Origin: Malacoraja senta | Lineage: Eukaryota | Assembly: GCA_038087875.1 (NCBI GenBank) | Contig: CM075994.1 | Span: forward strand, 3,722,001 to 3,786,000 | Length of the DNA stretch: 64,000 nt | Reading direction: 5' to 3' | In this document: positions 6,100-53,496 of the stretch, one piece after another | Numbering within the stretch: the first letter of the stretch is position 1 | Layout: each line of letters starts with the position of its first letter | Notes under the pieces: model-generated | What the model saw: only the letters and a program-made list of their open reading frames with translations | Database searches by the model: none | Told to the model about the DNA's origin: nothing | Translations under genes and position numbers: made by a program

Positions 6100-6126
6100 A
6101 AATGAAAGTAATCGTCAACAAAACTG
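6100..6126 (+). CDS. Gene A micro-exon, 27 nt, phase 1/1, (E)MKVIVNKT
   Basis: gtttctttccattcag|AAATGA...AAACTG|gtaacc. Confidence 0.65.
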
Positions 6127-9818: not shown

Positions 9819-9848
9819 AAAGCCTGGCAACAGTTAGAAGAAACAAAA
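9819..9848 (+). CDS. Gene A penultimate micro-exon, 30 nt, phase 1/1, (E)SLATVRRNK
   Basis: cattttttttaaatag|AAAGCC...ACAAAA|gtaagt; joins to give LATVRRNK-I-ALKLDP, resembling the usual pre-PRY segment. Confidence 0.75.
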
Positions 9849-11603: not shown

Positions 11604-12124
11604 TTGCTCTCAAATTGGATCCAGCGACAGCAGATCCACGATATTTGATTTCAAACGATTACCTCAATGCTCGGTGGGTTGAGAATCCATGGGATGTCAC
11701 TTCAAGTCAAACGAAATATGCCGGAACGTACCTTATTTGGGGAACAGATGGGTTCATGTCAGGAAAACAGTATTGGGAGATACAGGTGGATGAGGGGACA
11801 GTCTGGTCTGTCGGGGTATCGCCGCGGAAAATGACAACCAGAAAATGGGTTCGAGCTTCAAAAGAAGAACAGTATTGGACTGTGTTGCTCTGGAACATAG
11901 GGAACAATGAGGTGGAAGCAAGGACAATGGGTCACTTCGTCACCATCGTTCAACTTCGCAAGATTGGAATTTACTTAAGCTACGAAGAAAGAAAAGTGAC
12001 ATTTTATGATATCGCGACAGAAAAACCTGTTCACCAATTCGCCGGTCAATTCGAAGGTGTATTTTATCCTGTGTTTAGGTTTTTCTTTGGAACAACCCAA
12101 AATAAATCGTTGACAATTATTTAG
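11604..12124 (+). CDS. Gene A terminal exon: B30.2 (PRY-SPRY) domain, TRIM/butyrophilin-like
   Basis: tttatttctctag| phase-1 acceptor; LDPATA, GFMSGKQYWEIQV, WSVGV, KIGIYLSYEERKVTFYD, FYPVF; open to TAG at 12122-12124. Confidence 0.93.
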
Positions 12125-22878: not shown

Positions 22879-22879
22879 A

Positions 22880-23400: not shown

Positions 23401-23439
23401 GGGGCTGGACACCCTATCTGTTGGGCGTTCCCTTGCTGT

Positions 23440-26600
<3,161 letters not shown>

Positions 26601-31399: not shown

Positions 31400-31635
31400 T
31401 AAGCGTAGAGGTAGAATTGCTGCCAGAGCACCCGGTTTCGATCCTGACTACGGGTGCTTGTCTGTACGGAGATTGTACTATCTCCAGGGTGACCTGCGTT
31501 GGGTTTCTCCAAAATCTTCGGTTTCATCCCACACTCCAAAGATATACAGGTTTGTAGGTTAATTGGCTTTCGCGGACTCGGTGTGCCGCACGACCCGTTT
31601 ACGCCCTGTATCTCTAAATTAAGCTAAACTAAACT
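31400..31635 (+). mobile_element. Degenerate V/HE1-type SINE
   Basis: Similar to 11163-11480, with ctaaa tail. Confidence 0.75.
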
Positions 31636-32401
31636 AGTAACTGTTATAATGCGAGTGCTGTGTAACTGTTATAATGCGAGAGCGAGTGCGAGTGCTGAGT
31701 GCTAAACTAATAACAGATACAAATGCGAGTGCTGTACGATACGTACATATATTTATACCTTGCAACAATGGTAAAAACAAATGCAATAGTGCAGTCGAAC
31801 GTAGTGTTAAAATTTTCAAAATTTTATGGTGGGTTATTATACAGGAAGAAGAAACTGGCGATAAATTTAGTTTGCGATTTTCGGATGCCTTCCATCTGTT
31901 AATATTTCGGCTGTTTTCGGCATACGTTTTAACCATGTTTGCATAATTATTTAGTTTATTCACGCATCCATTTTCTTCCACACCCTCCTTCACCACTCTT
32001 CCCGTTACATTCACCTTGAGAAGATGCGTAAACTTAACATTCACATTGTTCCTTTCGCTGTGCGAAAAATCGTTTGGAATAACGATCCACACGCTCATTT
32101 TGTGTGAATGCTCAAATCAGTATCAGCGAGTCGGTTCTGCTCATATCATGTAAATGTTACATCTACAGTATAGTGCATATACAAACCGTAAGGAGATTGT
32201 TCCGCATGTAATGGAGAGTGCGGGCAAGGAGGGGCATAATTGAGCATTTACACTGGGAGGGACCAATCGTCATGTATGTTTGAAACAAATTAATGATATT
32301 TATCGAAGAAATTAAAATCAGAAATCCTGCCATCATCACGTTATAGTTTATTTATATAAATTAAAACAATAACAAATATATATTGTTGTTTACTTTGCAG
32401 G

Positions 32402-32417
32402 ATGGATAGTTTCAAAG
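32402..32417 (+). CDS. Gene B putative start exon, MDSFK + phase 1
   Basis: tttactttgcag|gATGGATAGTTTCAAAG|gtaggt. Confidence 0.6.
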
Positions 32418-33344
32418 GTAGGTTCCGAAAATATATAAGACATTTGACAAAGAAATTCGCCAACGTTAATACGGCTAACTACTGGTTGAATATCTTCACC
32501 GATATCAGTTCAATTTACTTTATTGTCACATGCACCAATGTACAGTGAAAAGCTTTCGTTGCGTGCTAACCAGTCAGCAGAAAGACAATACATGATTAAA
32601 ATGGATCATGATTAAAGTGTATGAGGTAATAAGGGAATTTTCGCGCAATAGTGCAAATGCGGTATGAAATTGTGCTCTGCACACTGTCGCTTTCTGTTGT
32701 TAAATAATTCATAGGTAATCATTCCGAGGACGCAAAGACCACAGAGATTTACATCGTCTGGAACTATTCCATTGCAAAAGAAAATATATCTCCACATTTT
32801 CAACGGTATATTATTTAAAAGAAAATATAATTTTCAACAAGCCATGTGAATTTTCAATGTGAGGCAATCAAGTTCCAGAAAGCCCACGAAAGAAACGCTT
32901 TGGCCTCATTAATCACCCTATTATCTAACTGAAACTCACAAGCACCATTTATGTATTCAGTTCGAGTATTTCGTCATAAATGTACACCTATACATCAACA
33001 CATAATATATTTTCCACATTATCATTTAGAGATCTTGCCCCATCACCAATTCGCCTGTAAAGTACTTACACATATTAGCCTTACGATCTTGTTCAAAATA
33101 ACTTTTCTGTATTTTGTCTTCAATTCTAATTAATGCACGATCGAAAATTAAAGATAGCTCACCGCAACTTGCATTCAACATTGTACATTTCTACATTTTT
33201 TACTCGTATCTATATTTCAAATGTATTGAACAAAAGTGTCCTTTCAAGGATTTATTTGACATTTCAGCCTGACAACTATCTCCAACATTTCCTTTTCCAC
33301 TGCATTACCTAGAGTTTCTACCTAGGGCAATTGCATTGCACACT

Positions 33345-35180
33345 TCAAGTTCAAGTCAAGTTTCCTTTATTGTCATTCAGACCTTTCGGTCTGAACGAAA
33401 TTGTGATGCCTGCAGTCATACACAGAACCAATAATAACAAAACATACAATAAACACAAATTAAACATCCACCACAGTGAGTTCACCAAGCACACCCTCAC
33501 TGTGATGGAGGCAAAGTCTTAGTCTCCGTCTCTTCCCTCCTTGTTCTCCCTCTGCGCTGAGGCGATCGATCCGGGCCGAAGATGCCGCCCTCCAGTCCAG
33601 CGGACCTCCGTGGTGATGTCGCCGCCGCCAAAAGCCGGAACGCCGCCTCCGCTCCAAGACGGCCTGCCACAGCATCAGCCCCGGATCTCGCCGTCTCCGC
33701 TCCGGGCCGCTGCCCCAGCTCCGGGCCCCGCAGTCTCCGCGCCCCGCAGTCTCCGCTCCGGACCCCGCTGCACCAGCTCCAGGTCCCGCAGTCTCCGCTC
33801 CGGATCCCGCAGTCTCCGGTCCGGACCCCGCTGCACCAGCTCCAGGCCCTGCAGTCTCCGCTCCGGACCCCGCTGCACCAGCTCCAGGCCCCGCAGTCTC
33901 CGCTCCGGACCTCGCTGCACCAGCTCCAGGCCCCGAAGTCTCCGCCCCGGACCCCGCTGCACCAGCTCCAGGCCCCGCAGTCTCCGCTCCGGACCCCGCT
34001 GCACCAGCTCCAGGCCCCGCAGTCTCCGCTCCGGACCCCGCTGCACCAGCTCCAGGCCCCGCAGTCTCCGCTCCGGACTCCGCTGCACCAGCTCCAGGTC
34101 CCGCAGTCTCCGCTCCTGACCCCGCTGCATCAGCTCCAGGCTGCCGCCGAAAGCCAGAACGCCGCACCAGCAAGTCTGGCCACCGCTGCCTCAGCCCCGA
34201 AGACGGCCAGCCTCCCGTTGGGAAGTCCTGGCTGGCTCTGCCTCCGTAGCCTCGGGGTTGGGCGCAGGATGGAGGCGGCCAGTCCCGCCATTAGGCCTCA
34301 CCGCAGTCTTTTCATCGAATTATTCCGTTATGGCCTCTGCCTGAAGGTAAGTAAGTAAGTAACTATTTTTTTTTATTTATATAGCACTTTTAAATCAAAT
34401 CACGTTGAAGCCAAGTCCTTTACAGAGAAAAAAACTAGATTACCATACATCCATACAACACAAAAAAGAAGAAAAAAAAGACACAATACACCATAGGATT
34501 CAACACGAACGTCCCCCAACAGCAGAATCAACAATTTCCACTGGGAGGGAAGGCACCAAAAAGTCCAGTCCTCCTTCTTCTGCTAGTCCACCCGAGGTCG
34601 GGGCCCATTTGAGGCATCCGCAGCCAGTCGCCACAAGGGCGGACCGATGTTTTCAGGGAAGATGGAACTCCGGCGTCGGGTGAACACTCCTCAGCGGCTT
34701 GCAAATGTCTGGAGCGGCCGCTTCCTCCCCGGACACCGCAGCTCCCGAAATCCTCAGGCCGCGCTGGTCAGAGCCCCGACTCTGGCGATCTCGGATCGCA
34801 GGCTCCGCGGTGTTTTAAATCCAGCGCCGCCCGCGGCCGGACTCCCGCAGCCACAGCTCTTCGGATGTTGGAGTCGGGGGTCGCAGCACTCCGGAGCTTA
34901 CCGCTCGGCGACCCGGGTAGGGCATCGCCCCCTCCGCGATGGTGTCCCAGCCCTGTGCCGCCGCCGACGCTGTAGTACCGGCCGATCCCGGGAGGAAACG
35001 CCGCTCCAGTCTCGAAGGAGAGGACGAAGATGCGACTCGGAAGAAAATCTCAGAAATAAAGTTTCCCCCTTCGTCTCTCCACACCCACCACATAAAAGAA
35101 GACCTCCAACAAACACTTTGTTTTAACAGGACTAAAAATAAAAATAAAAAAGGGTGAAAAGATGGACTGCAGGCTGAAAG
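33345..35180 (-). mobile_element. Two adjacent non-autonomous LINE-related retroposons; the first carries a 42-bp minisatellite (~33745-34140)
   Basis: Tails caagttcaagt and (gtaa)n; unit ccgcagtctccgctccggaccccgctgcaccagctccaggcc. Confidence 0.65.
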
Positions 35181-35329
35181 AACACAGATCAGTCACAGAC
35201 ATGTCTGCCATTAATTCGCTGTTTCAAATGTAATCGTTCGCTTTTCCTGATATGTTAACATATTTATACCGAAATTCCGCACCGCACTTCGGCAATTGGA
35301 AAATAAAATTTCAAATTTGTTTGCCATAT

Positions 35330-36435
35330 TAGAGCAGATGATCTTCATCAAGATGGATGGGGAAAAGTGCAGCAGGATCCTAATCGATTGGGCGGGTGTG
35401 CTGAGGAATGATTGATAGAGCTTAACGGAGAGAAATGTGAGGTATTGCACGTGGGAAAGTCCAACATGGGCATGACCCACACAGTGAATTGTAGGGCTCT
35501 GGGTAGTTTTTTTTAGAGCAGAGGGATCTACGAGAGCAGTTGCGTGGTTCATTGAAGGCGGAGTCGCAGTTAGATTGAGTGGTTCAAAGGCATTTCGGCC
35601 GGTTGGTCTTCATGAGGCGGAGTATTGCTTATATAAGGTAGACACAAAATGCTGGAGTAACTCAGCGGGACAGGCAGCATTTCTCTAGAGAAGGAAATGG
35701 GGACGTTTCCGGTCGAGTCCCTTGTTCAGTCCGATCTGATTCTTCAGACAGATTGAGTATATGTCAGTTTGCACTTGTATAAGATGTTGATGACGCCGCA
35801 TTTAGAATATGGTATTCCGTTTTGCGCACCGTGTTATCGGAAATAAGTTGTCAAGCTGGAAAGGGCGCAGAGAAGATTTACGAAGATGAAGAAGGGTCTC
35901 GACCCGAAAAGTCACTCATTCCTTCTCACCAGAGATGCTGCCCTTGCCGCTGAGATACTCCAGCGTATTGTGTCTATTTACGAGATTGTTGCCGGGACTA
36001 GAGTCTCTGAGCTAGAGGGAGAGGTTGAGTAGGCTGGGACTGTATTCTTGGAGCGCAGAAGGAGGATGGGTGATATTATAGAGTTATACAAGGTCATGAG
36101 CGGAGTGGATCGGGTAGATACACAGAGTGAATCGAGTACCAGTGGACATAGATTTAGGTGAAGGGGAAATTATTTAATAGGAATCTAAGCGGTAACCTTT
36201 TCACACAAAGGGTAGTGGGTGTATGGAACTGGCTGCCATAGGAGGTAATTGAGGCAGGGACTATCCCCACATTTAAGAAACAGTTGGGCATGTAAATAGA
36301 TCGGGCAGGTTTGAAGGGTTATAGACCAAATACGGGCAGGTGGGACAAGTGTAGATGGCACATCTTGGCCGCTATAGGCAGCTTAGGCCGAGGCGCCTAC
36401 TTTCATACTGCATCACTCTATGACTGTGACTCTAT
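35330..36435 (+). mobile_element. Old CR1-type LINE 3' region with small nested repeats
   Basis: aaatgtgaggtattgcac; ttttcacacaaagggtagtgggtgtatggaac; ctctatgact tail. Confidence 0.75.
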
Positions 36436-36813
36436 CAAGATTTATGTGAACTGATTATTTGTGGCAACATATTTATTCATCAGCATAAATTCAATGCTAT
36501 ATTTAGTGTTATATTGCCTTTAACGAGACACGGTTCACAGATTAATATTAAACAAGTATAACATATTATTTTTAGTCAGTACTTTAGTCAATAACTCATT
36601 ATATGAACAGAACTGGTTGAAAATGATCAAATCAGGTCTTTTTACATCCCGATTCAAACCATATAATAAAAAGATTGGTTGAGAAGTTAAGTGCAGATAA
36701 AATTCGATGAGAGCTGTATTGATCATGTAAACCATTTCGTATTTGTACTTCGCTGATTAACTATATCGTTTCGCCATTTACTGACATATGTGCTTTCTTT
36801 TTGCCCGATAAAG

Positions 36814-36837
36814 TTGAGCAACTGGATAAAAATGCAG
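36814..36837 (+). CDS. Gene B micro-exon, 24 nt, (V)EQLDKNA
   Basis: ctttctttttgcccgataaag|TTGAGC...TGCAG|gtaagg. Confidence 0.7.
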
Positions 36838-37779
36838 GTAAGGTAAAATGGTCGTACTATATTTCATTGCTACAAGTATAGTTAATGCAGGACACGAAAT
36901 ACAATGTTATGTGTAATATTCAATTCTGATCCTCCACTTCAAGCGTTCAACAATTTTCAGTTGTATTTTATTCATAAGACCGACGATTTCTATTACACTC
37001 GTATTCGTAGACTTCCGAATCCTTTGGATATGTCGTGATCAATTTGGACTATTGTTCAGAACGGTTGAGCACTGCAATTGACAACACAATCAATTCACAA
37101 CCGTTACATGAATAATTGGTGACATTTGTTGACTACTTTTTATATGGAAACAAATTTAGAAAAAGTAAACGACTTTGCACTCATGATGATCGCCAGCGTT
37201 AAATGAAAGTCGATGGGTGCATCGACCTCATTGTCTCTCTGTAATGGTTTCAATGAGCATTTATGTTATTGCCGTATGGAATAGAACCATTATTTAATCA
37301 CCAAGTACACGTCATTTGCAGGATCAATATATAATATGTTTTACTATTCAGATGTTTACCCCGTGTTATTTAATGGGTATAGGTCTGGAATGTGCGGTCG
37401 ACCCCTTTTCACCTCCCAGGTTTTCGACATAATAAATATCGCGAAATTACTGTAATTTGCCTCTCAGTCTCATTGCAGAAGTGTGTTTATCAAGGACTAC
37501 TCGATCTCCTGATTGCCAAACATTTAAATCATATTCAATACTCATACTGACATTACTGTCCTGGGCCTCCCCCATTGCCAGAGTGAGATCACACGCAAAC
37601 TTGAGGAACAGTAACTCATATTCCGCTTGGGTAGTTCAGTGCCGAACTGTATGGACATAGATCTCTCCAATTTTAGTTAACTGCTAAACCACCCCTCGTC
37701 CCCGCCTCTCTCTTAAGCCTCATCTGGAATCTCATCTGTTTCTGCTCTTCCCTCCAATTCCACCAAAATTCATTTCTCA

Positions 37780-38380
37780 AGTCAAGAATCAAGAATCAAG
37801 AGGGTTTTATTACCATATGTCCCGAAACTGAACAATTACATATTTGCTGCAGCAGCACAACAGATATCTAAATATAGTACACTTTAAACACCATAATAAA
37901 CAACAAAAATAAGTTCAGTATATGTATATAAAAAAAGCAAACAATAAATAATATTGCAAAGACAAAAAACAATGTCCCCAAGGCCATGTTGTTCGGAGCT
38001 TATGAATGATTTAATAGCCTGATGGTTCTTGGGAAGAAGCTGCCTTTGAACCTGAACGTTACCGTTTTCAAAATGCTATACCTTCTTCTCGATGATAGGA
38101 ATACAATGAGAGTGTGGCCAATGAGGTGTGGCTCTCTGATGATACTGGCTGCCATTTTAAGGCAGCGACCCATGCATAACCCTTCGATGGTGGGGGTGTT
38201 GGGAGTCAGTACCCGTGACGGACTGTGCAATATTCACCACGTTTTGCAATCTTCTTCGTTTCTGGGCGTTCGAGTTGCCGAAGCAGGCAATGATGCTCTC
38301 ATATGCAAGTCCATACAGGTTCATGGTAGTTTCGTCGGCATTCCAAATTCCCTTAGTCTTTTAAGGATTTAGAGGAGTAG
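37780..38380 (-). mobile_element. Rex1-like LINE 3' fragment
   Basis: RCLKMAASIIREPH..RRYSILKTVTFRFKGSFFP; (tcaagaa)n tail. Confidence 0.8.
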
Positions 38381-40804
38381 TACCTTCTTGAATCCGAACA
38401 TCTTCAAACCTTTTGTCTCACTCCTTCTGCCTTTCGATCTCTGGTCTTTGTCCAACCACCTGCCTATCACACCCACGTCCTTTCCCCCCAACATCCACCA
38501 ACACCACCAACACCACCAACACCAACACCTGTATACAACGATTATTCCCAGACCCTGTCCTGCACCTCTTGCCTTCCAGTTTCTTTCCTCCTCACCCCCT
38601 CTTCCACCAGCAGTCGGAGGAAGGGTCCCGAAACAAAATATTACCTGCCATTTTCATAGGTTTGCTCCATGACCCGCTGATTTTTCAGCATTGCCGAATA
38701 GCATCTGCAGTTCCTGTTTTGAGGAAATTATGGTAGTTCCACGCTGACATGACAGTGCGCATACAATGACGGAAATGTCAGGAAATTTAGATGCTCTATT
38801 GATATTTTCCGTCCCTCTGCTACGAAATTAGATCACTGGAGATCATCAATAGAGCTAGCATCTGGCGATATAAGCCAATTAATGCATTGGGAAGTATGTT
38901 CTGAGTTGATTAAAATGAGCACATCATAGCCTACCAATACATTTCGATGGAGCAGACTGACTAATTATGCGCGCAGATCCTCTCCTATAACGTTCAAATG
39001 AAATTAAAAGATTTTTATTTCTGTAATACTTTATACCTTTAAAATAATTGAAAACGCCTTTTTAAGTTGAATGCGTGTATTCAATTTTCAATGGTATGTA
39101 TCATTCAAGTGCGCCTCACTGGCGTTTCATCGTCGCACAAACGTCCTTTTTTTCGCCCAAAGGTAGACTTTAAATTGAAGTGCCAGTAGATTGCCCAGCT
39201 GGTCACCGTGCTGATGGTTGGCCTCAACCCATGCTTCCACAGTTGAGACAACATTTTTCTTCTGTGCTAACCAAAAAACGTGCGAAAATTGAGGTTAGCA
39301 GAAACAGAGTATTATTCCATCGAGAACAAACAACTGACATCAATCTACGCATATACAAAGTGCTGGAGTAATTCAGCGGCTGCTCAACACCGAAGATAGG
39401 CACAAAATACTGGAGTACCCCGTCTATCTTTGTGTTTATCTTTGGTGTTTACCAGCATCTGCAGATCATTTCTACAGATCAATCTGAGTAGCTTCTGTTT
39501 ATAGATAAATACAAAATGCGTCAGTCAAAATGTCACAGATCATGTGACGGTTCTGAACGTCGTAATCAGGTTTATACTTATTTTCTCCTGATGTTTATAG
39601 TGCCATGTTTCACATCCGATTCATACGTGGCGACATCTAGGAACTCGCATTTCACCTTCACACCTTCCTAATTTGAAACTATAGCGCGGTCTCCCGCTGC
39701 CTGTTCCTCGTTCCAGTTCTAGTACTTAGTGAACAGCAATTTTGCACGGTAATGGGTTTAGACATTTAGTTATCTTTGTATAGGAAACCTTTTATTTAAT
39801 TTGATGTTTCAGTTGGAGTGGAAAACCGCTTGGTTGAAATGTCATTGACCTAATTTAACACAAAATCGAATTAAAATATATTATTCCAGGTAAAAACTAA
39901 AGATTATTTTTCAGTTCTGATCATTCAGAACGTTCCATTTAACCGATGGAGAATAATTTGAATGTGGTTGCACTTCATGCATAAAAATATCCATGCTTTA
40001 ATTCTGAAGAAATAGTTAGCCGAGAACGCTGGAAACTAAATTATTCACAGGCATTAAATGTTGACGCTGTTACTTTCCTGACCGATTCTTCCAGGCCTAC
40101 TGAGTGTTCCCCGTTTTATCTGCGGTCGTTTGAATGTAATGACTAGTCAGACACTCGGTTACCTAGGATCACGTTTCTTAATATTGCCAAGCGTCGTGAA
40201 CTGGATCTGCTGCCCTAGGGGCAAACTCCTTAACCATCGTCCCAGCCACCCTAGCGCACCTACAGTTCAGTTTAATATATTTTATTCATGGTTTATTTTG
40301 CCTTGGCAAATGTTTGTCCGCGATGACTTAACCCCACTTTTACTTAAATATGATAATCGATAGTCGATATTTTTTGTTTTCTGATAAAAGGAAACGACAA
40401 CGTTAATTGTTTTCCCCGTTCTCAAATCTGAGCGAATCTTTTCGTTTTTACTGAGAATGGTACACCGCAATAAAACGCGAGAAACAGCTCACAGTAGAAA
40501 ATTCCTGACATTCTGAATTTAAGTGAAAGTGCATTGTCGTGTATTGCAGAATTTCTCGGTGTAGGAAGGAACTGCAGACGCTGTTTTAAACCGAAGATAG
40601 ACACATAAAACTGGAGTATCTCAGCAGATTAGACAACACCGCTGGAAAATATGGATCGGTGACCCTTTCGGGTCGAGACCCTTCTTCAGACAAAATCCAT
40701 TCGTTCGTTATCTCACACTGATGAATCCTCAAACGTTGCAAAGTTCTGTCAGCTCAGTTACGTACTTTCGTTCCCATATGTATATTGAATAAAATATATG
40801 TCGC

Positions 40805-41535
40805 CAGATGGCGCCGAACGATGGCTGCCTCGCCAACGGTCTGTCTCGTCTTTTTCCTTCTCTGTTGTTTTTAGTCTGTTGTTAAATGTATGTTTCAGTG
40901 CACCTTTAGTTTTGTATTATTTGGGAGATGGGATGGTGGGGGATACGTTTTGTATCTATTTCCCCGACGGCGATGCAACTTTCTTCAGTGTCATATCTCC
41001 GTCCGCGCTGTGGCCTAACATCGAGGACCTGGCGGCCTCTTGCTGGGGATCGATCTCGGGACTTCCAACCGCGGGAGCCTGCCAACGTTACATCGCGGAG
41101 CTGGCGTCCCTTTGTCAGAGATCGTCCTTGGGAGCTCCAACCGCGGGAGCCTGCGGTCTAAACATCGTGGAGCTCACGGTCCCTGGTTTGGGACCGAATT
41201 CGGTGCCTCCAACCACAGAAGCTTCGATCGCCCGATCGCAGGATCTTCGATCGCCCTGACGAGGGAGTTTCGATCGCCGGCTGCGGGAGCTTCGATCGCC
41301 CCGACTGTGGTTGGTTCGACTGCCCCGACCGCGGGTGAAAGGAGGAAAGAAGATCGCACTTTATTGCCTTCGAACACAGTGGGGAATGTGGTGGAGCCGC
41401 TGTGGTGACTCTAAATGTTAAATGTTATGTAGTTGTGTGTCATGTTGCTTTTTTTGGTATGACTGTATTGCAACTCTATTTTTTGTATGTTGCAAAACAT
41501 ACTTGACTAATAAGATTACGATTACTATTACGATA
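40805..41535 (+). mobile_element. Non-autonomous LINE-related retroposon
   Basis: agatggcgccg head, ttcgatcgcc repeats, (attacg)n-like tail; related to 6428-7240. Confidence 0.6.
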
Positions 41536-41671
41536 TGTGTTCTGGTTATATCGTATAATTCATTGTGTAAGTAAAGTCCCAGCAAATGCTGTTACTTGAA
41601 CTCACGAATATTCAATCGCACCCCGCGATCCGGTCATTGTTCTTGATTGTTTCTCCACTTAATGTTTTTAG

Positions 41672-41698
41672 ATTTGGAAAAACTTATCGCGGAGAGCA
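41672..41698 (+). CDS. Gene B micro-exon, 27 nt, (D)LEKLIAES
   Basis: aatgtttttag|ATTTGG...GAGCA|gtgagt. Confidence 0.72.
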
Positions 41699-41887
41699 GT
41701 GAGTACAGACTTTTATAAACGAATATATTTTGTTGGAGATAAATATTCACAGAAATAAGAATTAAAGTCCAGCAAATTTTACGCGTGACGTATCAATCTG
41801 TTCCATTTTGGTTTTGGTTTATATTACTTTGCGCAACGATCAGAGGAAAGAATGGTTTGATTACTTTTTCTTTTACAATTCTTACAG

Positions 41888-41914
41888 TGAAAAAGATGCT
41901 TGCGAAAGACCTAG
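41888..41914 (+). CDS. Gene B micro-exon, 27 nt, (M)KKMLAKDL
   Basis: ttttacaattcttacag|TGAAAA...CCTAG|gtaatg. Confidence 0.75.
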
Positions 41915-42433
41915 GTAATGTTTACCCTCTAATACTAAATATATTTCAGATTATACTTCGTACATTTTATTTAAAAAAATCAATGGCAGTGTCAAATTTT
42001 CAAAAAACTATTCTTAATGCTCTTAAACGAATAAAGCAAAATGTTCGCATGAAACAAAAGCCCTAGTTTATTTCATCATTATATTCGGTGTTATTAACAT
42101 ATCGTTCCGTTTCCGACTGAGCTAATCCTTAACGCCCGAATCCATGCATTCGTCGCCCATTGGAATTCCATGTTTTTTGTAACCCCCAAAAATTCTGAAA
42201 AATGATATCAATCTCCATATATTTCTTGCCCAATTTTCTGATTGATTCGATACTCGTCGCCTTAAAAGTTAAAGAAGAGATCTTAGAAATTATCTCGATT
42301 AATGTGTTCCATGTAATCATTAGTTGTGTGGACATTCAAATGTTAATTATCGAGGATTTAAATAATTATACTTCAAAAGTGTGCTTCCTATAGATAGCGT
42401 GGTCTGACATTGTGTAATATTTTGTTTCATAAG

Positions 42434-42469
42434 AGATTGAAATTCTGAAGTTAAAGGTTTCGAACGGCG
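42434..42469 (+). CDS. Gene B micro-exon, 36 nt, (E)IEILKLKVSNG
   Basis: ttttgtttcataag|AGATTG...CGGCG|gtaagg. Confidence 0.75.
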
Positions 42470-43936
42470 GTAAGGAAACAATCCATTCTATTGAATTAAA
42501 ATTACGCGGCCGTCTCGCTTCTGCGTTAACTCAGAAAAAAGTATTTGCGTTATTTCCTTCATGATCTGATTCCATTATACCTCGTGTTTGACGCAATTGA
42601 TAATTGGTGTGTATTCCTAATTTCCCTTGGCCTGTCTGAATTGAAAAAATAATTACCTCGTGTAGGGTATTGTTATAATATCGTACGGAATGAAAATATT
42701 GCTACTTTCAGTTAATGTATTTGTATTTCATCTTCAGCGATCCTTTTAAGATTAATGGCCATTAAAATCTATTTGGCATTACTCTGGAGTTATCATTGTA
42801 CACATATTCTGTGTATTAATTTAATATGAGAGACATCAAGAATTGCAAAGTATTGCAAACTAGTTTAGTTCGCTCGAATTCACAACAATGGTTATAATTG
42901 TGATTTGTGCAATGCAAGAGCTGGATAGTTATCAGCGTGTTATTTACAATTTGCTGCTTTCAAAATACATTGAGTACTCTGCCATTGAATGGCTTTGCAA
43001 AACCATTATATATGTACCAATGTACATCAAGAAGTCTGAAACATTTCCTATGAATGACATTTGTTTTAAATTTCCTTCGTATGGGACAACATGTAATAAA
43101 TACGCTGGGACTGGGCAAGGAATAATAGGTATATTAAAAGGAAAATTGCACATATTATCATAATTAACATTAGTCGATCGCTCATCATAATAAAGATGAA
43201 TGCAATTGCAAGTGATGTATATTCTTATACCCATTCCCCATTTAGAGGTGGACGAATAAAGCACATGTCAGAATGACTTTTCGTGGAACTATCGACTCAA
43301 CCATTGCTTTAGGTATCACCAAGTGCCAATTGAAATGTCGGTTTTAGGCAATATACGGAAGCTTGCACCGCACTTTGAGGTCACGGAAATGCCATTGATA
43401 TTCGAAGTATAAACGCATACAGGATGCCACTAGTTATAACGCTAATTAGTCCACTGATATTATTTACCGTCCTCTAAGATGTGTCAATGTGTCACAAGCG
43501 GGCGTATCGCGGTGCAGGGTGGTTGTGTGACACTTCACTGTGGACGTTTGGACTTGAAGTTGATCTCAACCTATTTTGAAAATAAAGACATTGACTAATG
43601 ATGCTCGTATTAATTCGGAGTACAATGCAAAACAAAATTGGAAAGATATAAAGGCAGTAGCTTGATTACGAAATAATACGTATTTGTTTTGGGAAATATG
43701 ATAAAACCAATGTTATTTGCAGGTGATTCTGCGACTTCCATGAAATTGTAGTTTTGGTTAATGTGTAAAAGGTTCGCATTTCATAATTGTTTATTTTGTT
43801 GGCTAGTGCATTCTCCCTAAATCATATTATTATATCCCAATTGGCAATAAAACTTCAATATGATAACTTTTATTTTCTGCAGTTGTCTATATTCTAGATT
43901 GTATTTAATGGTGTCTCAATTCCATACTTTTCACAG

Positions 43937-43954
43937 ATGGCACTACCGATACAG
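43937..43954 (+). CDS. Gene B micro-exon, 18 nt, (D)GTTDT
   Basis: catacttttcacag|ATGGCACTACCGATACAG|gtaaga. Confidence 0.72.
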
Positions 43955-44090
43955 GTAAGATGTAATAAATTATTTAGCAAAGCTGCACATGAACGGATCA
44001 TAAAGTGAAGCGCTCCAGAGATTTGTTGACACTTTTTAATTACAAGAACTAGAAATAAACTTCAGATTACTGACACGGTATCCGCGATAG

Positions 44091-44111
44091 GGGACAATGG
44101 AGAATCACTTG
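44091..44111 (+). CDS. Possible gene B micro-exon, 21 nt, (G)DNGESL
   Basis: ccgcgatag|GGGACA...CACTTG|gtaagt; strong donor, weak pyrimidine tract. Confidence 0.4.
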
Positions 44112-44887
44112 GTAAGTAGGTGATAATCTGGCGGTGAGAAAGGCACAATGCATTGTTGCTACGACAGAGCACAATCTTGAGTTTTTGCTGCCCTTTTCCT
44201 GTGCAGCTCATGCCAGCATTATCATTTGCGTGCATTCACATGCAGAAATCCGGAATTATACCGACCAAACCAGCATGATTTCGAAGTCGGCAATTTTTGT
44301 AGCCCTTTTAGTTTCCGTCAATATGACATCACGTCAATTGGTGCGGATTTGAGTTATTAACGAAATATTATCATCTTGATATCCTGATAATCCAATATGT
44401 TCAGTCATATCAGAAATTATATTATTTCTCTAACGACATGCTTAATGAAGTTATTATTGCAGGCATGACTTGTGATTGCCAGTATTATGATAACTGAGAA
44501 GTTTATGCTTTTGCGCGCCATCCAGTGGATCAAGTGAGTACAAGGGAGTTAAAATAAACAGAATGTAGAACAAAGTGTTGCACTTGCAGATAATATGAAG
44601 ATAATGTGCAGAGACGAAATAGATCGCGAGATAGGGATTTCATGCTTCTGATATTAAAGTATATTTAAGAGTGCGACAATAGTGGGAAATGAACATTTCC
44701 TGAATAGCGGCACATGCTTTCAAACTTTGCAACGGCTGCATGCTGGGAGAGAGGTGTGGTGGGGAGAGGGGGGGGGTCAGATTGCGTAATGGAATGCGTT
44801 GCGTTTTCCAGCAAGCGCTAGCTGTCTTGAGAGCAGCAGTTACTCTGCACTGGATAAGATGCCTCTGCTCGCGCATTAGTAAATTAG

Positions 44888-44914
44888 GATGCCAACGTGC
44901 AATTGTAAAACCAG
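44888..44914 (+). CDS. Possible gene B micro-exon, 27 nt, (G)CQRAIVKP
   Basis: taaattag|GATGCC...AACCAG|gtaagt; strong donor, weak acceptor. Confidence 0.3.
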
Positions 44915-45335
44915 GTAAGTCATTGGACACTTGCCTAATCTCATTACATTACTTGTCTGTAGTTTCAACGTGATTAGATGAGGACAAATGGTTGGTGAAA
45001 TTTATCCTAATGTCCCATCCCTATATATCACCGTACTAATTATGAAAGTGCTTATCAACAGTTGATGTCCGGCAATTTTTCAGCATAGAACAGCAAAATG
45101 AAAACATTTTCCGAATATTTCATAATGTAATGTCTTCACTTCAGAAAGCAAAAAAAATATCTGTTGCCGATTATATTTGCAGTCTGTTTGGGTCTTATCA
45201 GCAAAATCCCTCAGGACGAGATAAAATCAGATTATTCTCAGCGTGTTTGTGAATTGTATATTATATAAATAGAGGTATATGATATTTATAGGATATGTAA
45301 ATAATGTGGTTATATATGTAATAATTGCACTACAG

Positions 45336-45353
45336 GCAGTGACAAAGAAACAG
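45336..45353 (+). pseudogene. Dead copy of the duplicated micro-exon (18 nt, donor GT>GG)
   Basis: cactacag|GCAGTGACAAAGAAACAG|ggaaac, homologous to 50918-50938 including flanks. Confidence 0.7.
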
Positions 45354-45508
45354 GGAAACTATCAACAATATCAGTACATGTATCCTAGATAGTTGCTTGA
45401 ATCATTTGTTTTACGTCGATAAATAATTTATGGTACATAGGTCTCGAGATGTTATACAGTTGAAGAGTGAATACGTATCTTTACTGTGTACGGTTTTATT
45501 AGAATATA

Positions 45509-46330
<822 letters not shown>

Positions 46331-46789
46331 ATTTTATTTTAATATGACTTACAAAATAAGCTTAAGAATGTAACAGCTGCATGATCCATTAAACCACCTG
46401 CAGTCTTTCCTGACATCGGCAGGCGGGAACAAAATAAATTTGTGTAGACGACAAAGAACATAAGGATGTTTTAGACTACGCTGTTCAAACATGTTCAGTA
46501 ATAACATAAATTATATTAATTCTCTAAGGTAACGTGATGCTTAATGAAGTTATTATTCCCGGCTAAACGTGATTGCCAGTATGACGGGAAGTATGTAATT
46601 TTGCATGCGATTCAGTAGATCAAGGGTGCTAAAAGAAACAATGCAGAACAGAGTGTTGCACCTACAGAAAATGTCTAAAGATATAAGTGGAAGGGCTGAA
46701 ACGAAATAGGTCGTGAGATCGGGAATTCATGCTTCATATATGAAAGTCTATTTAAGAGTAGAGTTAAAGCCGGAAAGAACCGGTTCTTG

Positions 46790-47325
46790 AATCTGGCTTC
46801 GGAGACAGACCGTTCGCTATCAGAGAGGGGGATCCCACCAACGGTATCCCACCACTGGCCACATCTTCCCTTTCGGCTTTACGCAGAGACAGCTCCCTCC
46901 GTAATTCGCTGGTCAATTCGTACCTTCCCAACCAAACACACCCTCCCCTGGTACTTTCCCTTGCAACCGCAGGAAATGCTACACTTGTCGCTTTACCTCC
47001 CCTCTCGATTCCATCCAAGGACCCAAGCAGTCTTTCCAGGAGAGGCGGAGATTCACCTGCACCTCCTCCAACCCCATCTATTGCATCCGCTGTTCAAGGT
47101 GCCAACTGCTCTACATCGGTGAGACCATGCGCAGGCTTGGCGATCGCTTCGCCCAACAAATCCGCTCAGTTCGCATTAACCAACCTGATCTCCCGGTAGC
47201 TCAGCACTTCAACTCCCCCTCCCATTCCGAATCCGACCTTTCGGTCCTGAGCCTCCTCCGTACCAGAGTGAGTCCAACCGCAAATTGGAGAAGCACCTCA
47301 TATTTCGCTTGGGTAGTTTACACCC
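46790..47325 (+). mobile_element. Penelope-like element GIY-YIG endonuclease fragment
   Basis: FTCTSSNPIYCIRCSRCQLLYIGETMRRLGDRF..PVAQHFN; a more decayed piece lies at ~37490-37680. Confidence 0.88.
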
Positions 47326-47649
47326 CGTTGCCTGCATCTTCCCGGTCTATTCCTCTCATGATCCTATACAGCTCAAGAAATATCACCCTCATCCGCCCGC
47401 GATCCAAGGAAAAGTGTCCCGGCCTACTTAACATCTGCCTATAGCTCAGACACTCTAGTCCTGGCAACATTTTCGTAAATGTTAGCTTACCCTATAGATC
47501 GTCAAAGTGAAATATATTATATATTGTGTTTGCTTTGAACTGCCAGATACGCATTGATGTCATATTCACAAATTGCTCTAACATAATTTGTTACTTTGCA
47601 ATCGAACGAAATATTCTCCATATAGTTGAAAACATTCTGCCACCCCTTT

Positions 47650-49290
47650 CTTTTTTTTTTTTTCTTTTTTTTTTTAAATTTTTATTTATTAGAAGTACAT
47701 TACATTACAACCACATACATTAGTACTCGTCATTTATATCTTCTTACAATTAATGTACTCCATTTATTTTTTACACTAGAAAAGGAAAAGATTGAAAGAA
47801 AGAAGAAAGTGAAGGAAAAAGTGAAAGTGTAGGAAATGTGACAACAAAAAAGGACGAAGACCCTATAAGAGCAAAATTAAAAACAAAAGAAAAAGAGTTA
47901 AGAAATAGACCCTAGGAAAGAAAGAGAGAGAAAGAGGAAAAAGAGAGAAACAAATATTTTTATGAGCATTACGTAAATGGGACATACCAACTCTTCAACT
48001 ATCATCACCCCTTACCTGACCTCAATTTTTTTTAAAGTACTTTTGCACCCTATGTTTGTAATAATTCTATAAATGCAGACCACGTCAGGTGGAAGTGATC
48101 TGGTTTACCTGCTAGGAGGAGTCTTATCTCTTCTAGGTGTAATGTTTCAAACATATTTGAAATCCACATATTTATAGTTGGTATTGGAGCCTTCTTCCAA
48201 AATTTTAGAATTAGCTTTTTTCCAGTTATTAACCCATAGTCCATTAGTTTCTTTTGAAACACATTTAGTTCTGGACCATCTTCCGTTATACCGAAGATAA
48301 TCCATTCTGCTTTGGGTATCAGTCTTGTTTTAAATAACTTTGTAAAGATTTCAAAAATTTCATTCCAAAATTTTTGAATTTTTTGTACAAGAAACGAATG
48401 AGTGCGCTATGATAGCTTCTTGGGATTGACATTTATCACAAATAGATGATACATTTGGGAAAATTTTATGAATTTTAGTTTTCGATTAATATAATCTATG
48501 TAAAATTTTAAATTGTATTAAAGTGTGTCTTACATTAATCGAGCATTTATGCACGTTTAATAAGTATTCATTCCAACTTTCCTTTGAAATTTTAATAGCT
48601 AACTCTTGTTCCCAGTCTCTTCTGATACCCTCCGTAGATGGTATTTGTACATTTAAGATAATATTATACAAATATGATATTAAGTTTGCTGATTCCGCTT
48701 TTATCTGCATTGCCTCGTCCAGTACATCTACTGGGTTATTATGATGATCTTTTGTATATTTTTTCAAATAGTCGCATATTTGAAAATATTTAAAATATTG
48801 ATTATTTCCGAGTTTATATTTTATTTGTAACTGTTGAAATGAAAGTAATTTTCCAGTTTCATACAAGTCACCAAGCGTTTTAATTCCTAATCTATCCCAT
48901 TGTGTATAAGCTTTATCTATAATAGAAGGATTAAACGAAGGGTTATTGACTATGGGTAATAAAAGTGATAAATTTCTTAATTTTAAATTTTGTTTTATTT
49001 GTTTCCAAATTAGGATTGTACTATGAATAATTGGGTTCTTATTATAATTTATGTTATTCAATTTCATTGGAGAGAGGAGGATCGCTCCAATGTTTCTAGA
49101 GGAGCAATCCTCTTTCTCCATTACAATCCAGTCCACTTGCTGGGCGGAGTTATCCATCAGTGGAATCATATTTTAAATATTTACTGACCAATAATAATAC
49201 ATAAAATTAGGTAGTGCTAAACCCCCTAATACTTTAGGTTTATTCAGATGAGTTTTTTGTATTCCAAGTGATTTATAGTCCCATATACTG
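47650..49290 (-). mobile_element. L1/Tx1-clade LINE 3' end (ORF2 C-terminus and 3' UTR)
   Basis: Poly-T at ~47650; LIQFKILHRLY, CDKC..HSF, GLALPNFMYYYW near 49190-49225. Confidence 0.85.
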
Positions 49291-49359
49291 CCACCCCTTT
49301 CTTTCCATTTTAATAATCATAACCATACTCATATTAATAATCATACTTTAATAGCCACG

Positions 49360-49935
49360 TATGTTTTACAACATACGAGAAATTTGATTTGCCATACAGT
49401 CATTCCATACAAGACACACCAAATACATTTTAACATAAACATCCACCACAGTGACCCCTCCACATTTTTCACTGTGATGGAAGGCGAAAAAAAGTTCAAT
49501 CTCTTCCCTTATTTGTTCTCCCGCGGTCGGGCGCTTCGAACCTTCCGTTGACGGGACGATGTTGATCCCGTAGCCGGTGGTGAAATCCTCCGCGTCAGGG
49601 CTATCAAGCTCCTACATCGGGGGCATGTCAGCTCCCCGCGCCCGGTGATCGACTCCGGGTCGGGGCTGGTCTTCTGTAACTTCGGAGCTTCCCGACGTCA
49701 TGTACCCGAGACTGCGTGCTCCTCGATGTTCAAATCCGCAGGCCGCGGTTGAAGCGTCGATCCCAGGCAAGGGATGGGCTCCGATGGTCAGTCCACGTCC
49801 GCGCGGTGGAGCTCAAAGTCAGTCCTCAGCAAAACCTCCAGCTACATTATGTTAGGACGCAGAGCGACTGGAGATCCGACCCAGAAAACAATCCCATCTC
49901 CGGCAAGATAAGAGATTGAAAATAAGTTCCCCCCA
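49360..49935 (-). mobile_element. Non-autonomous LINE-related retroposon
   Basis: Shares taaacatccaccacagtga and cactgtgatggaaggcg with the copies near 33460 and 6880. Confidence 0.6.
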
Positions 49936-50323
49936 ACACATTTCTTTCCAACCCATTTCTTTCCAGTTCTACCCTGATGCAGATATATTTCTCCAACTAC
50001 CACTGCCCCCTATATTTTACCGTAGGAAATATGAAAGTGATTGTCAACAGTTGATATTCTGCACAATTCAAGCACTGAACAGAAACATGAAAACATTTTT
50101 ACGAATACCTCACATTGCAATGTCTTCATTTCCCAACGCAGAATCGATATATTTGCCTATTACATTTGCAGGCCATATGGCTCTGGTCAGTAAAATCTCT
50201 CAGGATAATTTCATATCAAATTATTGTCAGCGTGTTTGTGACTTGTTTATTATACAAATGGTGGTATATAATATTGATTGGATTTGTGAATAATGTAGTA
50301 TATGTGTTTTAATTACATTACAG

Positions 50324-50344
50324 GCAAAGATGACAAGGAAGCAG
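50324..50344 (+). CDS. Gene B duplicated micro-exon, 21 nt, (G)KDDKEA
   Basis: ttaattacattacag|GCAAAG...AAGCAG|gtacat. Confidence 0.6.
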
Positions 50345-50917
50345 GTACATTATAATCAATATCCGTGTTTATATCATATATATTTGCATGACTCGCTAGC
50401 TCTACGGTAAGGAATAATTTATCGAACATAGGTCTGGAGATAATATATTGTTGAAGATTGGCCACACAGCGTTATTGTGCATTGTTTTATCGGGATTCTG
50501 TACAAAATGTGAAACCAATGTGTAAAACGTATATATATTGTTACTTTAAGATGACTTTCATGTCCCACGGCAATCTCGATGAATTTTCCCGATGCTATTT
50601 ACTGTCTATTTGGCTCGATAATAGACTGCAAAACATTAGACGGAAAACATTAATCGATCATTTTTATTAGTAAAGTTTAATGTTTTATGTGTCATTCATA
50701 ACTGTCACTGTATGTCATGTTGTCACTTGCGAGCGGAGCACCAAGGCAAATACTTGGCCAATAAACGTATTCATTCATTCCAGCAGAATCCCTCAGGGCA
50801 ATAATGTATCAGATTAATTTCAGCGTGTTTGTGACTAGTATATTATACAAACGGATGTATCTGATACTTATTGGATATAGGAACAATGTGTCTACATGTG
50901 TTTTATTTACATTACAG

Positions 50918-50938
50918 GCAAGGGTGACAAAGAAACAG
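50918..50938 (+). CDS. Gene B duplicated micro-exon, 21 nt, (G)KGDKET
   Basis: ttttatttacattacag|GCAAGG...AAACAG|gtaaac. Confidence 0.7.
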
Positions 50939-51343
50939 GTAAACTATCAGAAATACCAGTTTTTACATCTTACTTTGTTACTTGCATTACTAGCTATACC
51001 GGTGGAACGTTGTTCATGGAACATAGGTCTAGATATATAATATTGTTGAAGAGTGAAAACAGAGCTTTGCTGTGTATTATTTTATTAGAATTCTGTATGT
51101 ATTTGAAGCCACCGTGTAAAACGTGTTTCTTTTGTAACGTTAATAAAACTTTCATTTCCCAAAGCAAAATCGATACATTTTGCCGATTATATTTACAATC
51201 TATTTGGGTATCATCCGCAAAATCCCTCAGGACGAGATAATGTCAGATTATTCTCAGTGTGTTCTCAGTTGTATATTGTAGAAAATACGCTATTTATTGG
51301 ATATGTAATCAATGTGGCTACGTGTGTTCTAATTACATTACAG

Positions 51344-51364
51344 ACACAGGTGACAAAGGAACAG
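51344..51364 (+). CDS. Gene B duplicated micro-exon, 21 nt, (D)TGDKGT
   Basis: ctaattacattacag|ACACAG...GAACAG|gtaatc. Confidence 0.65.
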
Positions 51365-52241
51365 GTAATCTATCAGCAATAACGGTGTTTATATCCTTGC
51401 TCGAATCACTAGATTTACACGTGGAGAAATAATTTATGGTACGCATAATTAACAACAAGGTCTGGCGATTAAATACTGTTGAAGAGTGAACACAGCTTTT
51501 ATTTGTTCACTTTAATACGTTAATATGAGTTGCAAATTGAGATTAATTCTGTTTCAGCTAGTGGAGCCATTGAACTACTTGCATACTTTCCTGATAACTG
51601 CAGGCGGGAACGAAACAAATTTGCGCCTGACGACACATTTATGAAGAATGTTTTAAACTCCACTGGTCAAACATGTTCAGTGATACCAGAACATATTATT
51701 TCTATAAAGTAGTGTCATACTAACGATGTTATCATTGCAGGCTAGACTTTTGATTGCCAGTATTATGATAAATGATACGTGTGTGATTTTGCGTGCCATA
51801 CAGTCAAAGCAAGTGCATCAAGTTAAAACAAGAGAGCAAAAAGGAACTGAATGCAGAACAGTGTGTCGCAACTACAGATAAGTGCAGAGAAAAATGTGGA
51901 AGGGCTGAAATGAAACAAATCATTAGATCAAGGAATCATGCTTTCGATATGAACGGATATTACAGAATATGACAACAACGGGCTAGAAACAATGCTTTCA
52001 ATCTTTGGCTCTGATCAGCAAAACTTCTCAGGACGAGATAATATCATAATATTCTCAGCCTATATGTATGTTTTTATATTGTACAAACGGATGTACGTAA
52101 TGGTTATTGGATAAATGAAAAAAAAAAATTGATGCTTCCTATGGTCAAACTTAATCTGACCTGTACATTACACAAATTGCGGTATTAATATTTTTTGGAT
52201 ATGTGAACAATGCATCTACATGTGTTATAATTATATTACAA

Positions 52242-52262
52242 GCAAAGGTGACAAAGAAACAA
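52242..52262 (+). pseudogene. Dead copy of the duplicated micro-exon (acceptor CAG>CAA)
   Basis: tattacaa|GCAAAGGTGACAAAGAAACAA|gtaaat. Confidence 0.65.
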
Positions 52263-52568
52263 GTAAATTAACAACCATGCCATGTTTATATCGTACATTG
52301 TTCTTTGAATTACTAACTTTACATGTCGAGCAATAATTTATGGGACAAAGTTCTGGATATACAATATTGTTGAGGAGTCACGACACAGCTTTCTCGTTGC
52401 TTAATTCAGACGGATATCGTATATATCCCTGCTTATTTTTAAATGACATTTGCCACATTTTGCCTTTTCACACGCAACATCTGCTAACATTTAGAAGTAG
52501 GGAATTTGAGAGTCAGGCTGGAAAGAATTTAATGGACATTGCCCCCCAAAAATCCATGTCTTGGTTAG

Positions 52569-52589
52569 TCGGAGTCCATGGCAACACAG
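52569..52589 (+). CDS. Possible gene B micro-exon, 21 nt, (V)GVHGNT
   Basis: catgtcttggttag|TCGGAG...ACACAG|gttagg; 78-nt intron to the next exon. Confidence 0.45.
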
Positions 52590-52667
52590 GTTAGGAGTGC
52601 ATTCAGTTTAACCACTGGGAAAAGCATAAGGTAAATCATGATTCAGTTTTCGTCTTTTTCACAACAG

Positions 52668-52694
52668 AAGACGAAGCAAAAGATAAAGAACGTG
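52668..52694 (+). CDS. Gene B micro-exon, 27 nt, (E)DEAKDKER
   Basis: gtctttttcacaacag|AAGACG...AACGTG|gtaatt. Confidence 0.72.
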
Positions 52695-53460
52695 GTAATT
52701 ACTTTGGAGCTGTTAAGGTAGCCGCACCTTGTCAGTGATGGACACTGATTTGCGGAAATGCATGTATGTTCACAAGTTCACCAGATATAGGACGAGAATT
52801 AGGTAATTTGGCCCATCGAGTCCACTCCGCCAATCAATCAATCTCTACCTCCTAATACAATTTTCCTGCCTTTTCCCCATAACCCTTGACACCAGTTCTA
52901 ATGAAGTATGTGCGCAGCATAGTTTCTCCAGTGCCAGGCTGGGTCGAATGATCGATCTAATCCGCGAGGCTAGGCATTAGCCCTCAAAAAACAGAAATCA
53001 CTAATTTGAAGGTAAGCATATCCTCATGGTCCTATTTCCCCAACTGAAACCTTCCGTGCTTCTGACATTCAAAAACGATCCGAATGTTCATCAAGTCAAA
53101 AGGAGGATTAGTCCTTTAATGCACTCATTCTTTTTCAAATATTATAAAATTAGCTATTACATGTTTAAGGTTACGCAGTTGTAGATTGGATTAAACAATA
53201 TTTTATGTAAACGCGCGGTATCATTAAATGTACAATTGGATTGTTTGCAGTACTTCATAAATTGATAAAGTATACCAACGTCGCAATGCTAGTGATGCTT
53301 CTAATGCGCATTGATACGTAATCAAAGTCAAAGTCATAGTATCCAATGTTGATTGTTCCATTGTTGTTGTTTACCAGCGAGACATGTAGAATTTATACTT
53401 TAAATTTTACATATAAATACTGAAGTGCAATGAAACTAAAGGTTTGTCTTTCTTTTTCAG

Positions 53461-53496
53461 AGCTCGATAAACTGAGAGAGAGTCTGAGCAATGCAG
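53461..53496 (+). CDS. Gene B micro-exon, 36 nt, (E)LDKLRESLSNA
   Basis: gtctttctttttcag|AGCTCG...ATGCAG|gtggtt; same length and pattern as 42434-42469. Confidence 0.72.

Follow-up and report, generated by a model that had tools for sequence, protein, structure and literature searches.

How far does a gene reach of which only a string of minute exons is seen, what would it encode, and does it end in a B30.2 domain as its upstream neighbour does? These questions are raised by 64,000 nt of DNA from the cartilaginous fish Malacoraja senta (the window, C18:3,722,001-3,786,000, where C18 stands for contig CM075994.1 of a genome of 1.94 Gb). An original prediction had read in the window a hidden gene made of symmetric phase-1 micro-exons, starting at 32402 and here called gene B, downstream of a gene with a B30.2 domain, here called gene A. 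In this study we report that the exons of the window are the 5' tip of a far longer array, and we propose that the coding part of a giant gene B probably begins with them, a gene from a cartilaginous-fish family of butyrophilin/TRIM-type 'coiled coil + B30.2' descent that would encode a headless rod, that is a coiled coil without the B30.2 domain. Continuous sequence was read over C18:3.582-4.276 and 4.300-4.510 Mb (904 kb), with samples elsewhere, and positions above 64,000 are projected from the window (C18 position minus 3,722,000).

Results

Micro-exons of gene B in the window

The ATG exon and the ten main exons of the original prediction are all present on the plus strand where the peptide given there places them, and their joined frame holds no stop. 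Splice sites were scored with generic position weights (A, acceptor; D, donor) and with a locus-trained exon model, which was built on 137 plus-strand seeds and is hence biased towards that strand. Between 36001 and 54000, in-frame, stop-free AG/GT candidates number 8 on the plus strand and 1 on the minus strand, and 100 dinucleotide shuffles of the same interval gave a mean of 1.31 (sd 1.02, maximum 4), so that the real exons exceed both backgrounds that the prediction had named as a check. Of the ten exons described as well formed, two have weak acceptors, at 42434 (2.1) and 51344 (3.3).

The putative first coding exon (32401..32417, +) comprises 17 nt from AG to GT, 16 of them from the ATG at 32402, ends in phase 1 and scores 10.6/10.2. 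Its acceptor has the highest locus-trained score (15.5) among the ATG-start candidates listed and, since the exon carries an acceptor, a 5' non-coding exon is implied, though unseen. The surrounding stretch at 30000..33000 is undepleted in CpG (observed/expected 0.98-1.12 per kb) and could be the promoter region of gene B, a weak sign given that the flanks of array exons average 0.92. A 24-nt phase-1 exon with an AAG acceptor follows (36814..36837, +; A 3.9, D 12.1), in which no substitution falls among the differences listed against a DNA contig from another species (20 differences in 275 nt). Next comes a module of two 27-nt exons and one 36-nt exon (41672..41698, 41888..41914 and 42434..42469, all + and phase 1) of a type common to gene A, supported for the middle exon by splice scores, module membership and paralogous blocks. 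The cluster at 41.6-42.5 kb has copies of 67-78% identity in five paralogous places, at C18:5.02 (-), 5.92 and 5.97 Mb and on contigs C4876 and C4996, the blocks of the first exon being conserved to 68-74% and those of the 36-nt exon to 72-78%. An 18-nt phase-1 exon (43937..43954, +; A 7.5, D 11.3) lies in a block at 43.9-44.3 kb with three paralogous copies, conserved to 72%; some of the paralogous places come as identical pairs and are possible assembly duplicates.

Three 21-nt linker exons (50324..50344, 50918..50938 and 51344..51364, +) are tandem copies duplicated as exon-plus-intron units, which are about 70-76% alike. Two further copies, absent from the original list, are dead: one of the G/K/D/T linker exon at 45336..45353 (+) has lost its GT donor, and one at 52242..52262 (+) has no AG acceptor in register. 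Exon birth and death are thus both seen within the window. Splice scores and the locus-trained model support the last two exons, of 27 nt (52668..52694, +) and 36 nt (53461..53496, +), both in phase 1; a paralogue search for 52480-53560 was drowned by a dispersed repeat. The three weaker exons of the prediction fared differently. Those at 44091..44111 (21 nt, acceptor 1.5), 44888..44914 (27 nt, acceptor -0.8, outside the paralogue matches) and 52569..52589 (21 nt, acceptor -1.0), all on the plus strand, are doubtful and at chance level, because the minus strand offers as many weak-acceptor candidates (7, vs 6 on the plus strand).

Extent of the array

The array goes on past 53496 to C18:4,422,414, its last micro-exon lying at 700,388, so that the window holds only the 5' tip of a phase-1 array of about 257-281 exons over 670 kb, some 650 kb of which run beyond the window and had been missed by the prediction. 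Strong AG/GT candidates between 32,000 and 440,000 are concentrated on the plus strand at 27 nt (65 vs 4) and 36 nt (34 vs 1), with 10 vs 3 at 24 nt and 0-9 on either strand at other lengths from 15 to 42 nt. At score 14 the locus-trained model finds 313 candidates on the plus and 17 on the minus strand. With overlaps resolved, a threshold of 14 leaves 281 exons (2,669 aa) and one of 16 leaves 257 (2,458 aa), the latter including 140 exons of 27 nt, 69 of 36 nt and 7 of 21 nt; the median intron measures 1.3 kb. Nearly all end in G (231 of 257), only 346 of 32,896 ordered exon pairs create a stop at the junction, and no stop is held by any strongly scored candidate of in-frame length from 21 to 36 nt. 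A block of 51.5 kb occurs twice around an assembly gap at C18:4,235,005 (approximately C18:4,183,500-4,286,600), with exon flanks 100% identical in the five of five pairs compared. For this identity it was treated as a probable false duplication of the assembly, and one copy was dropped from all exon counts.

Within the array, one 36+27-nt (three-heptad) module has recently been amplified six- to sevenfold in tandem, at projected 631,000-651,000 (L096-L098). A candidate exon of 132 nt in phase 1 (L057:4791-4922, +), whose acceptor is very strong, does not look like coiled coil, and its 43 aa had no match in a weak database search among proteins of up to 2,000 aa. CpG is little depleted across the array (0.54-0.96 per 20 kb from projected -20,000 to 700,000, 0.92 in exon flanks) and falls to about 0.44-0.55 beyond both ends, which suggests a large germline-hypomethylated domain.

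Selection and heptad register

The ratio of nonsynonymous to synonymous substitution (dN/dS) was 0.31 in nine exon pairs from block duplication and 0.46 over all 20 tested pairs, some of which are not independent; these values point to purifying selection on gene B exons. The product joined in genomic order holds 5 prolines in 2,398 aa, and its 3.5-residue hydrophobic periodicity reaches 0.53, against 0.27 +/- 0.03 (maximum 0.34) in 50 shuffles of exon order. Hydrophobic residues fall at positions 2, 5 and 9 of the 36-nt exons and at position 4 of the 27-nt exons, from which it follows that a 36+27 pair spells three heptads. Taken alone, neither the 27-nt exon (9 aa) nor the 36-nt exon (12 aa) amounts to whole heptads, and the skipping of one of them keeps the frame and shifts the register by 2 or 5 positions. 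Because the register moves with single skips of these exons and the order of the exons depends on heptad phase, a free combination of skips is unlikely. The proposal that the length of the product can change combinatorially therefore holds for the reading frame, which stays open, and fails for the heptad register, which shifts and constrains the order. The single 9-aa skips found in relatives (see below) indicate a certain tolerance of variation, but the signal in exon order speaks against free shuffling of the kind known from the micro-exon genes (MEGs) of Schistosoma.

Strand bias, dN/dS and the heptad-ordered exons together bear out the prediction that symmetric phase-1 micro-exons here form a hidden coding gene. 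The helix-linker-helix product drawn from the window understated it: the array would encode about 1,700-2,700 aa of coiled coil instead.

The two ends of the array

At the 5' end the ATG exon is followed directly by exons of the stalk. No signal peptide was seen, the N-terminal exons being charged and not hydrophobic. An immunoglobulin (Ig) motif, found in 17 of 160 proteins as a control, occurred in none of the frames of the 904 kb; no transmembrane (TM)-like exon was seen in 12.2-32.4 kb, between gene A and 32401; ten longer non-repeat frames at 18-32 kb had no Pfam match; and RING or B-box matches were missing from the 92 frames scanned with Pfam and from the relatives P0004 and P0011. The earlier statement that no Ig, TM, RING or B-box exon is visible thus stands. 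The 92 frames, drawn from 433 of at least 85 aa in the gaps between exons, gave only retroelement, zf-CCCH, phostensin and one sub-threshold TUNAR match, and the exon peptides compared with 154 proteins showed, apart from the relatives of gene A, generic coiled-coil likeness only.

At the 3' end, the B30.2 exon that had been expected beyond the window did not appear. A B30.2 profile built from eight subfamily sequences, with stops read through, found that of gene A only in the 904 kb; as a control, an ordinary B30.2 at C18:4.559 Mb reached 104 bits with this profile. Whole-genome protein searches with two B30.2 queries (150 of about 700 candidates scored in each) returned the same five subfamily exons, at C18:3.73 Mb, C18:5.71 Mb and three places on contig C5, and none at the end of the array. 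The array ends in a terminal-exon candidate at 703,045 (C18:4,425,045), single-copy in the genome, with a strong acceptor, 9 codons, a stop, and AATAAA 217 and 254 nt in. About 2 kb further on, before the next assembly gap, lies the GC-rich first exon of a different gene, which encodes a nurim-like membrane protein. As the gap-free stretch from the last micro-exon to this gene contains no B30.2, there is no room for one in the last gene of the array. A second possible end lies at 447,011 (C18:4,169,011), with an acceptor, a 10-codon frame, a stop and AATAAA. A scan for ATG exons cannot count the genes, because the minus strand offers start-like ATG exons in like number (31 vs 29).

Gene A, its relatives and paralogous arrays

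The proteins that match the window most closely come from rays and sharks. Gene A served as a positive control: 14 of its 30 predicted exons match Narcine XP_069775384.1 (P0004) and are colinear with it. Examples on the plus strand are a 27-nt micro-exon at 20..46 that matches P0004 residues 180-187, another at 6100..6126 with a counterpart in the paralogue at C18:5.70 Mb, and a 30-nt micro-exon at 9819..9848, supported by the locus-trained model and a match to a relative, which is the last before the terminal phase-1 B30.2/SPRY exon (11604..12124, +; PF00622, E 1.1e-11; 65% identical to Narcine XP_069775385.1). A 9-aa block missing from Narcine isoform X3 is exactly one 27-nt exon, and the same 9-aa steps are seen in relatives from Scyliorhinus (460/451/442 aa) and Callorhinchus (230/221/218 aa). 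All of these proteins are RefSeq models, which in such cases usually rest on RNA reads. Gene A and gene B have 27-27-36 phase-1 modules in common, which upholds the relationship proposed for them, and the last three exons of the array resemble the last modules of gene A. Among solved chains, the B30.2 of the family is nearest to BTN3A1 (E 5.8e-34, vs 4.2e-28 for TRIM21).

More micro-exon arrays lie at C18:5.0-5.2 Mb (-) and 5.68-5.97 Mb (+) (L064-L066, L079, L080). The resulting cluster on C18 spans more than 2 Mb; in it, a paralogue of gene A whose B30.2 is 70% identical precedes 5' ends like that of gene B, and another paralogue lies on the minus strand. In the paralogues on C5, the 19 kb upstream of the B30.2 exons held no clear array of 27/36-nt exons. 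P0160 (Leucoraja XP_055510696.1), a relative of the B30.2 exon at C5:17.44 Mb, has a hydrophobic start that, judged by eye, looks like a signal peptide, for which reason this branch may be secreted.

Locus and synteny

The membrane-protein gene after the array, which we take to be nurim, has a later exon with only ICMT/NnrU-like leads, below 0.9. Beyond it, at C18:4.494 Mb, Pfam detects Phostensin_N, and the contig that carries the array also has many B30.2 exons. Nurim followed by phostensin on one strand is the order shown for the class I region of the bat major histocompatibility complex (MHC; PMC4753418). From this order, as in the mammalian MHC class I region, the array likely sits in MHC class I framework synteny, on what is likely the MHC chromosome. 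Between genes A and B, the window also holds a CCCH zinc-finger remnant broken over two frames (15,650-15,950, +; PF00642, E 2.8e-6), which resembles a ZFP36-type pseudogene, and degenerate pol/integrase-like fragments of a long terminal repeat retroelement with stops and frame changes (18,400-23,500, -).

Discussion

The history that we propose would begin with a butyrophilin/TRIM-type 'coiled coil + B30.2' gene in an MHC class I framework region. The family appears to have grown by tandem duplication of exon-plus-intron blocks, which are directly seen; because every exon is phase-1 symmetric and nearly all end in G, duplications and losses keep the frame. Selection would keep the 36+27 modules, three exact heptads each, in heptad register, as the statistics of exon order indicate. 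Gene A would have retained the B30.2 head, and the array, in the assembled sequence, would end without one, in a 9-codon terminal candidate with polyadenylation signals, which is why we predict a headless rod as its product. Coiled coils rise 0.148 nm per residue, and the rod would have about 1,700-1,900 aa if the array holds two genes or 2,500-2,700 aa if it holds one, with a length of about 250-400 nm. Its location would be cytoplasmic, for want of a signal peptide or TM exon, and its expression is presumed. We consider this structural reading of gene B likely. A function as a coiled-coil scaffold or spacer, bundling with itself or with B30.2-bearing relatives, is plausible, at somewhat less than even chances.

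Several points weigh against these proposals. The scaffold function is drawn by analogy only, with chicken zipper protein. Family-like exons that break the frame occur at 54502 (28 nt), at projected 64527, 347415 and 511837 (26 nt each) and once in gene A; if always included they would truncate the product of gene B, and two of them fall right after 53496. DNA contigs of the same species differ from the assembly at 0-1 positions and by no gaps over 36.7-45.5 kb, so that indel errors seem rare and assembly error is not established. The continuous reading leaves out 24 kb (C18:4,276,001-4,300,000) and the gap at C18:4,235,005, and the second end at 447,011 allows either one gene or two in tandem. 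Four sequencing runs over 36700-45490 cover introns evenly, like DNA, with no exon-exon joint, and are therefore silent on the expression of gene B. A protein counterpart was sought with the P0004 stalk among longer proteins (up to 2,000 aa), and none was found at E<=1 among 2,204 candidates, in what is a weak search. Lastly, the ESM Atlas holds a cluster of long coiled-coil + SPRY proteins (1,579 aa, SPRY in 100%, score 0.88), a lead only, by which the headless state may be particular to gene B or its lineage.

How many genes the array comprises bears directly on the size of the rod. We give a nearly even chance to two or more headless genes in tandem: gene B would end near C18:4,169,011 after about 180-197 exons (1,700-1,900 aa), and a paralogue of about 77-84 exons would fill the rest. 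In their order, the exon series at projected 320-390 kb and that at 580-700 kb are paralogous, the end at 447,011 follows an exon type that also precedes the final terminal exon, and after it come a CpG-rich patch and 21-nt linker-like exons. However, the likeness between the two terminal candidates is not significant (their score is reached in 294 of 500 shuffles), no convincing second ATG exon was found, and the exon type before 447,011 is also seen inside the array, followed by further exons. That the whole array is a single 670-kb unit of about 280 exons of 18-36 nt is possible, though doubtful; it would encode a coiled coil free of globular domains, some 2,700 aa in size and about 400 nm in length, an MHC-linked, lineage-expanded ruler tuned by skipping or duplicating 36+27-nt modules, its B30.2 head lost. 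It is unlikely that the window exons are instead the decaying 5' part of a gene whose product would be degraded or short (about 100-120 aa), the downstream exons being relics or belonging to other promoters. Such decay would agree with the 28-nt exon at 54502..54529 (+), missing from the original list, which combines strong splice sites with an early stop and is 27 nt long and open in its paralogous copy in L079, with the 26-nt exon at 64527, with the two dead copies in the window and with the rarity of indels suggested by the same-species contigs. It accords poorly with the open frames of all strongly scored candidates, a dN/dS below 0.5 and only about 5 frame-breaking indels in some 310 exons. 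Moreover, the two indel exons that have a comparable homologue (54502 and that of gene A) lie within homopolymer runs, as assembly errors typically do, and symmetric exons can be skipped singly.

The remaining alternatives concern what may flank the stalk. A soluble stalk with a B30.2 exon in unread or unassembled sequence and with free exon skipping, as originally envisaged, would follow the layout of gene A and of its Narcine, Scyliorhinus and Callorhinchus relatives, whose isoforms differ by 9 aa, and would fit the likeness of the last three exons to the last modules of gene A. We nevertheless hold it to be quite improbable: the gap-free sequence up to the nurim-like gene contains no B30.2, the genome searches, within the candidates scored, placed none close to the array, nor to the 5' ends of its paralogues at 5.0 and 5.9 Mb, and an exon order constrained by heptads does not suit free skipping. 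An ordinary membrane butyrophilin or BG protein, whose Ig and TM exons would lie upstream and of which gene B exons would be the cytoplasmic tail, is very improbable. It would explain why the B30.2 of the family is nearest to BTN3A1 and why the synteny is of MHC type, and small heptad exons make up BG tails (PMC4046983); yet the scans brought to light no Ig motif in the 904 kb, no Pfam domain in the ten longer frames at 18-32 kb and no TM-like exon in 12.2-32.4 kb, and the 17-nt ATG exon is asymmetric, which would bar a phase-1 TM exon from reading through. Chance pairing of AG and GT in intronic DNA accounts well for the three weak exons, but for the set as a whole it is refuted by strand bias, dN/dS, shuffles, matches to relatives and periodicity, and hardly any weight is left to it.

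By descent, the giant headless gene B would belong with chondrichthyan coiled-coil + B30.2 proteins that are annotated and unstudied: Narcine XP_069775384-90 ('zinc-binding protein A33-like'), Scyliorhinus XP_038672306-10 ('TRIM39-like') and Callorhinchus XP_042191566-8 ('TRIM58'). They have the exon modules of gene A, isoforms mostly in 9-aa (also 6-aa) steps, and in Pfam SPRY/PRY only, with no RING, B-box or Ig. They combine a stalk of 50-280 aa with a B30.2 head, whereas gene B has the phase-1 27/36-nt modules in a stalk of 1,700-2,700 aa and no terminal B30.2 was found for it.

In its working, gene B would be like the heptad tails of BG and butyrophilin. Chicken BG genes (PMC4046983) are MHC-linked butyrophilin relatives with a coiled-coil tail from 13-36 small exons and no B30.2 after it, and zipper protein is a soluble form of the BG tail that regulates actin-myosin interaction. 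A tail of small heptad exons without B30.2 would be common to both, but BG has Ig-V and TM and exons of 21(24) nt with about one heptad each; gene B, with about ten times more exons, reaches whole heptads only in pairs of 27 and 36 nt, and neither Ig nor TM was found for it. Butyrophilin (BTN3A1), the nearest solved B30.2 to the family profile, likewise has a heptad stretch before its B30.2, though only few heptads, together with Ig and TM; none of Ig, TM and B30.2 was found for gene B. TRIM proteins carry RING and B-box before the coiled coil, and neither was found here. The MEGs of Schistosoma (PMC4350168) also have coding regions of nearly all tiny symmetric exons, with variants possible by skipping; they all have a signal peptide, are apparently restricted to flatworms and show high dN/dS. 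In contrast, gene B has no signal peptide, appears to be under purifying selection and has an order-dependent heptad phase, and we see no homology between the two.

A paper describing such an array was not found in searches of the open-licence PMC and bioRxiv literature. If gene B is expressed, it would be an extreme test of micro-exon splicing, with hundreds of consecutive exons below 40 nt. The array fills much of a 2-Mb block of the likely MHC chromosome, which annotation based on open reading frames leaves blank or mislabels as TRIM. Our work further suggests that the design known from chicken BG, with a heptad tail of micro-exons and no B30.2, either arose independently in cartilaginous fish or is as old as they are. 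Exon length would set the rules by which such a coiled coil evolves: frame symmetry permits any change, and heptad register selects those that persist.

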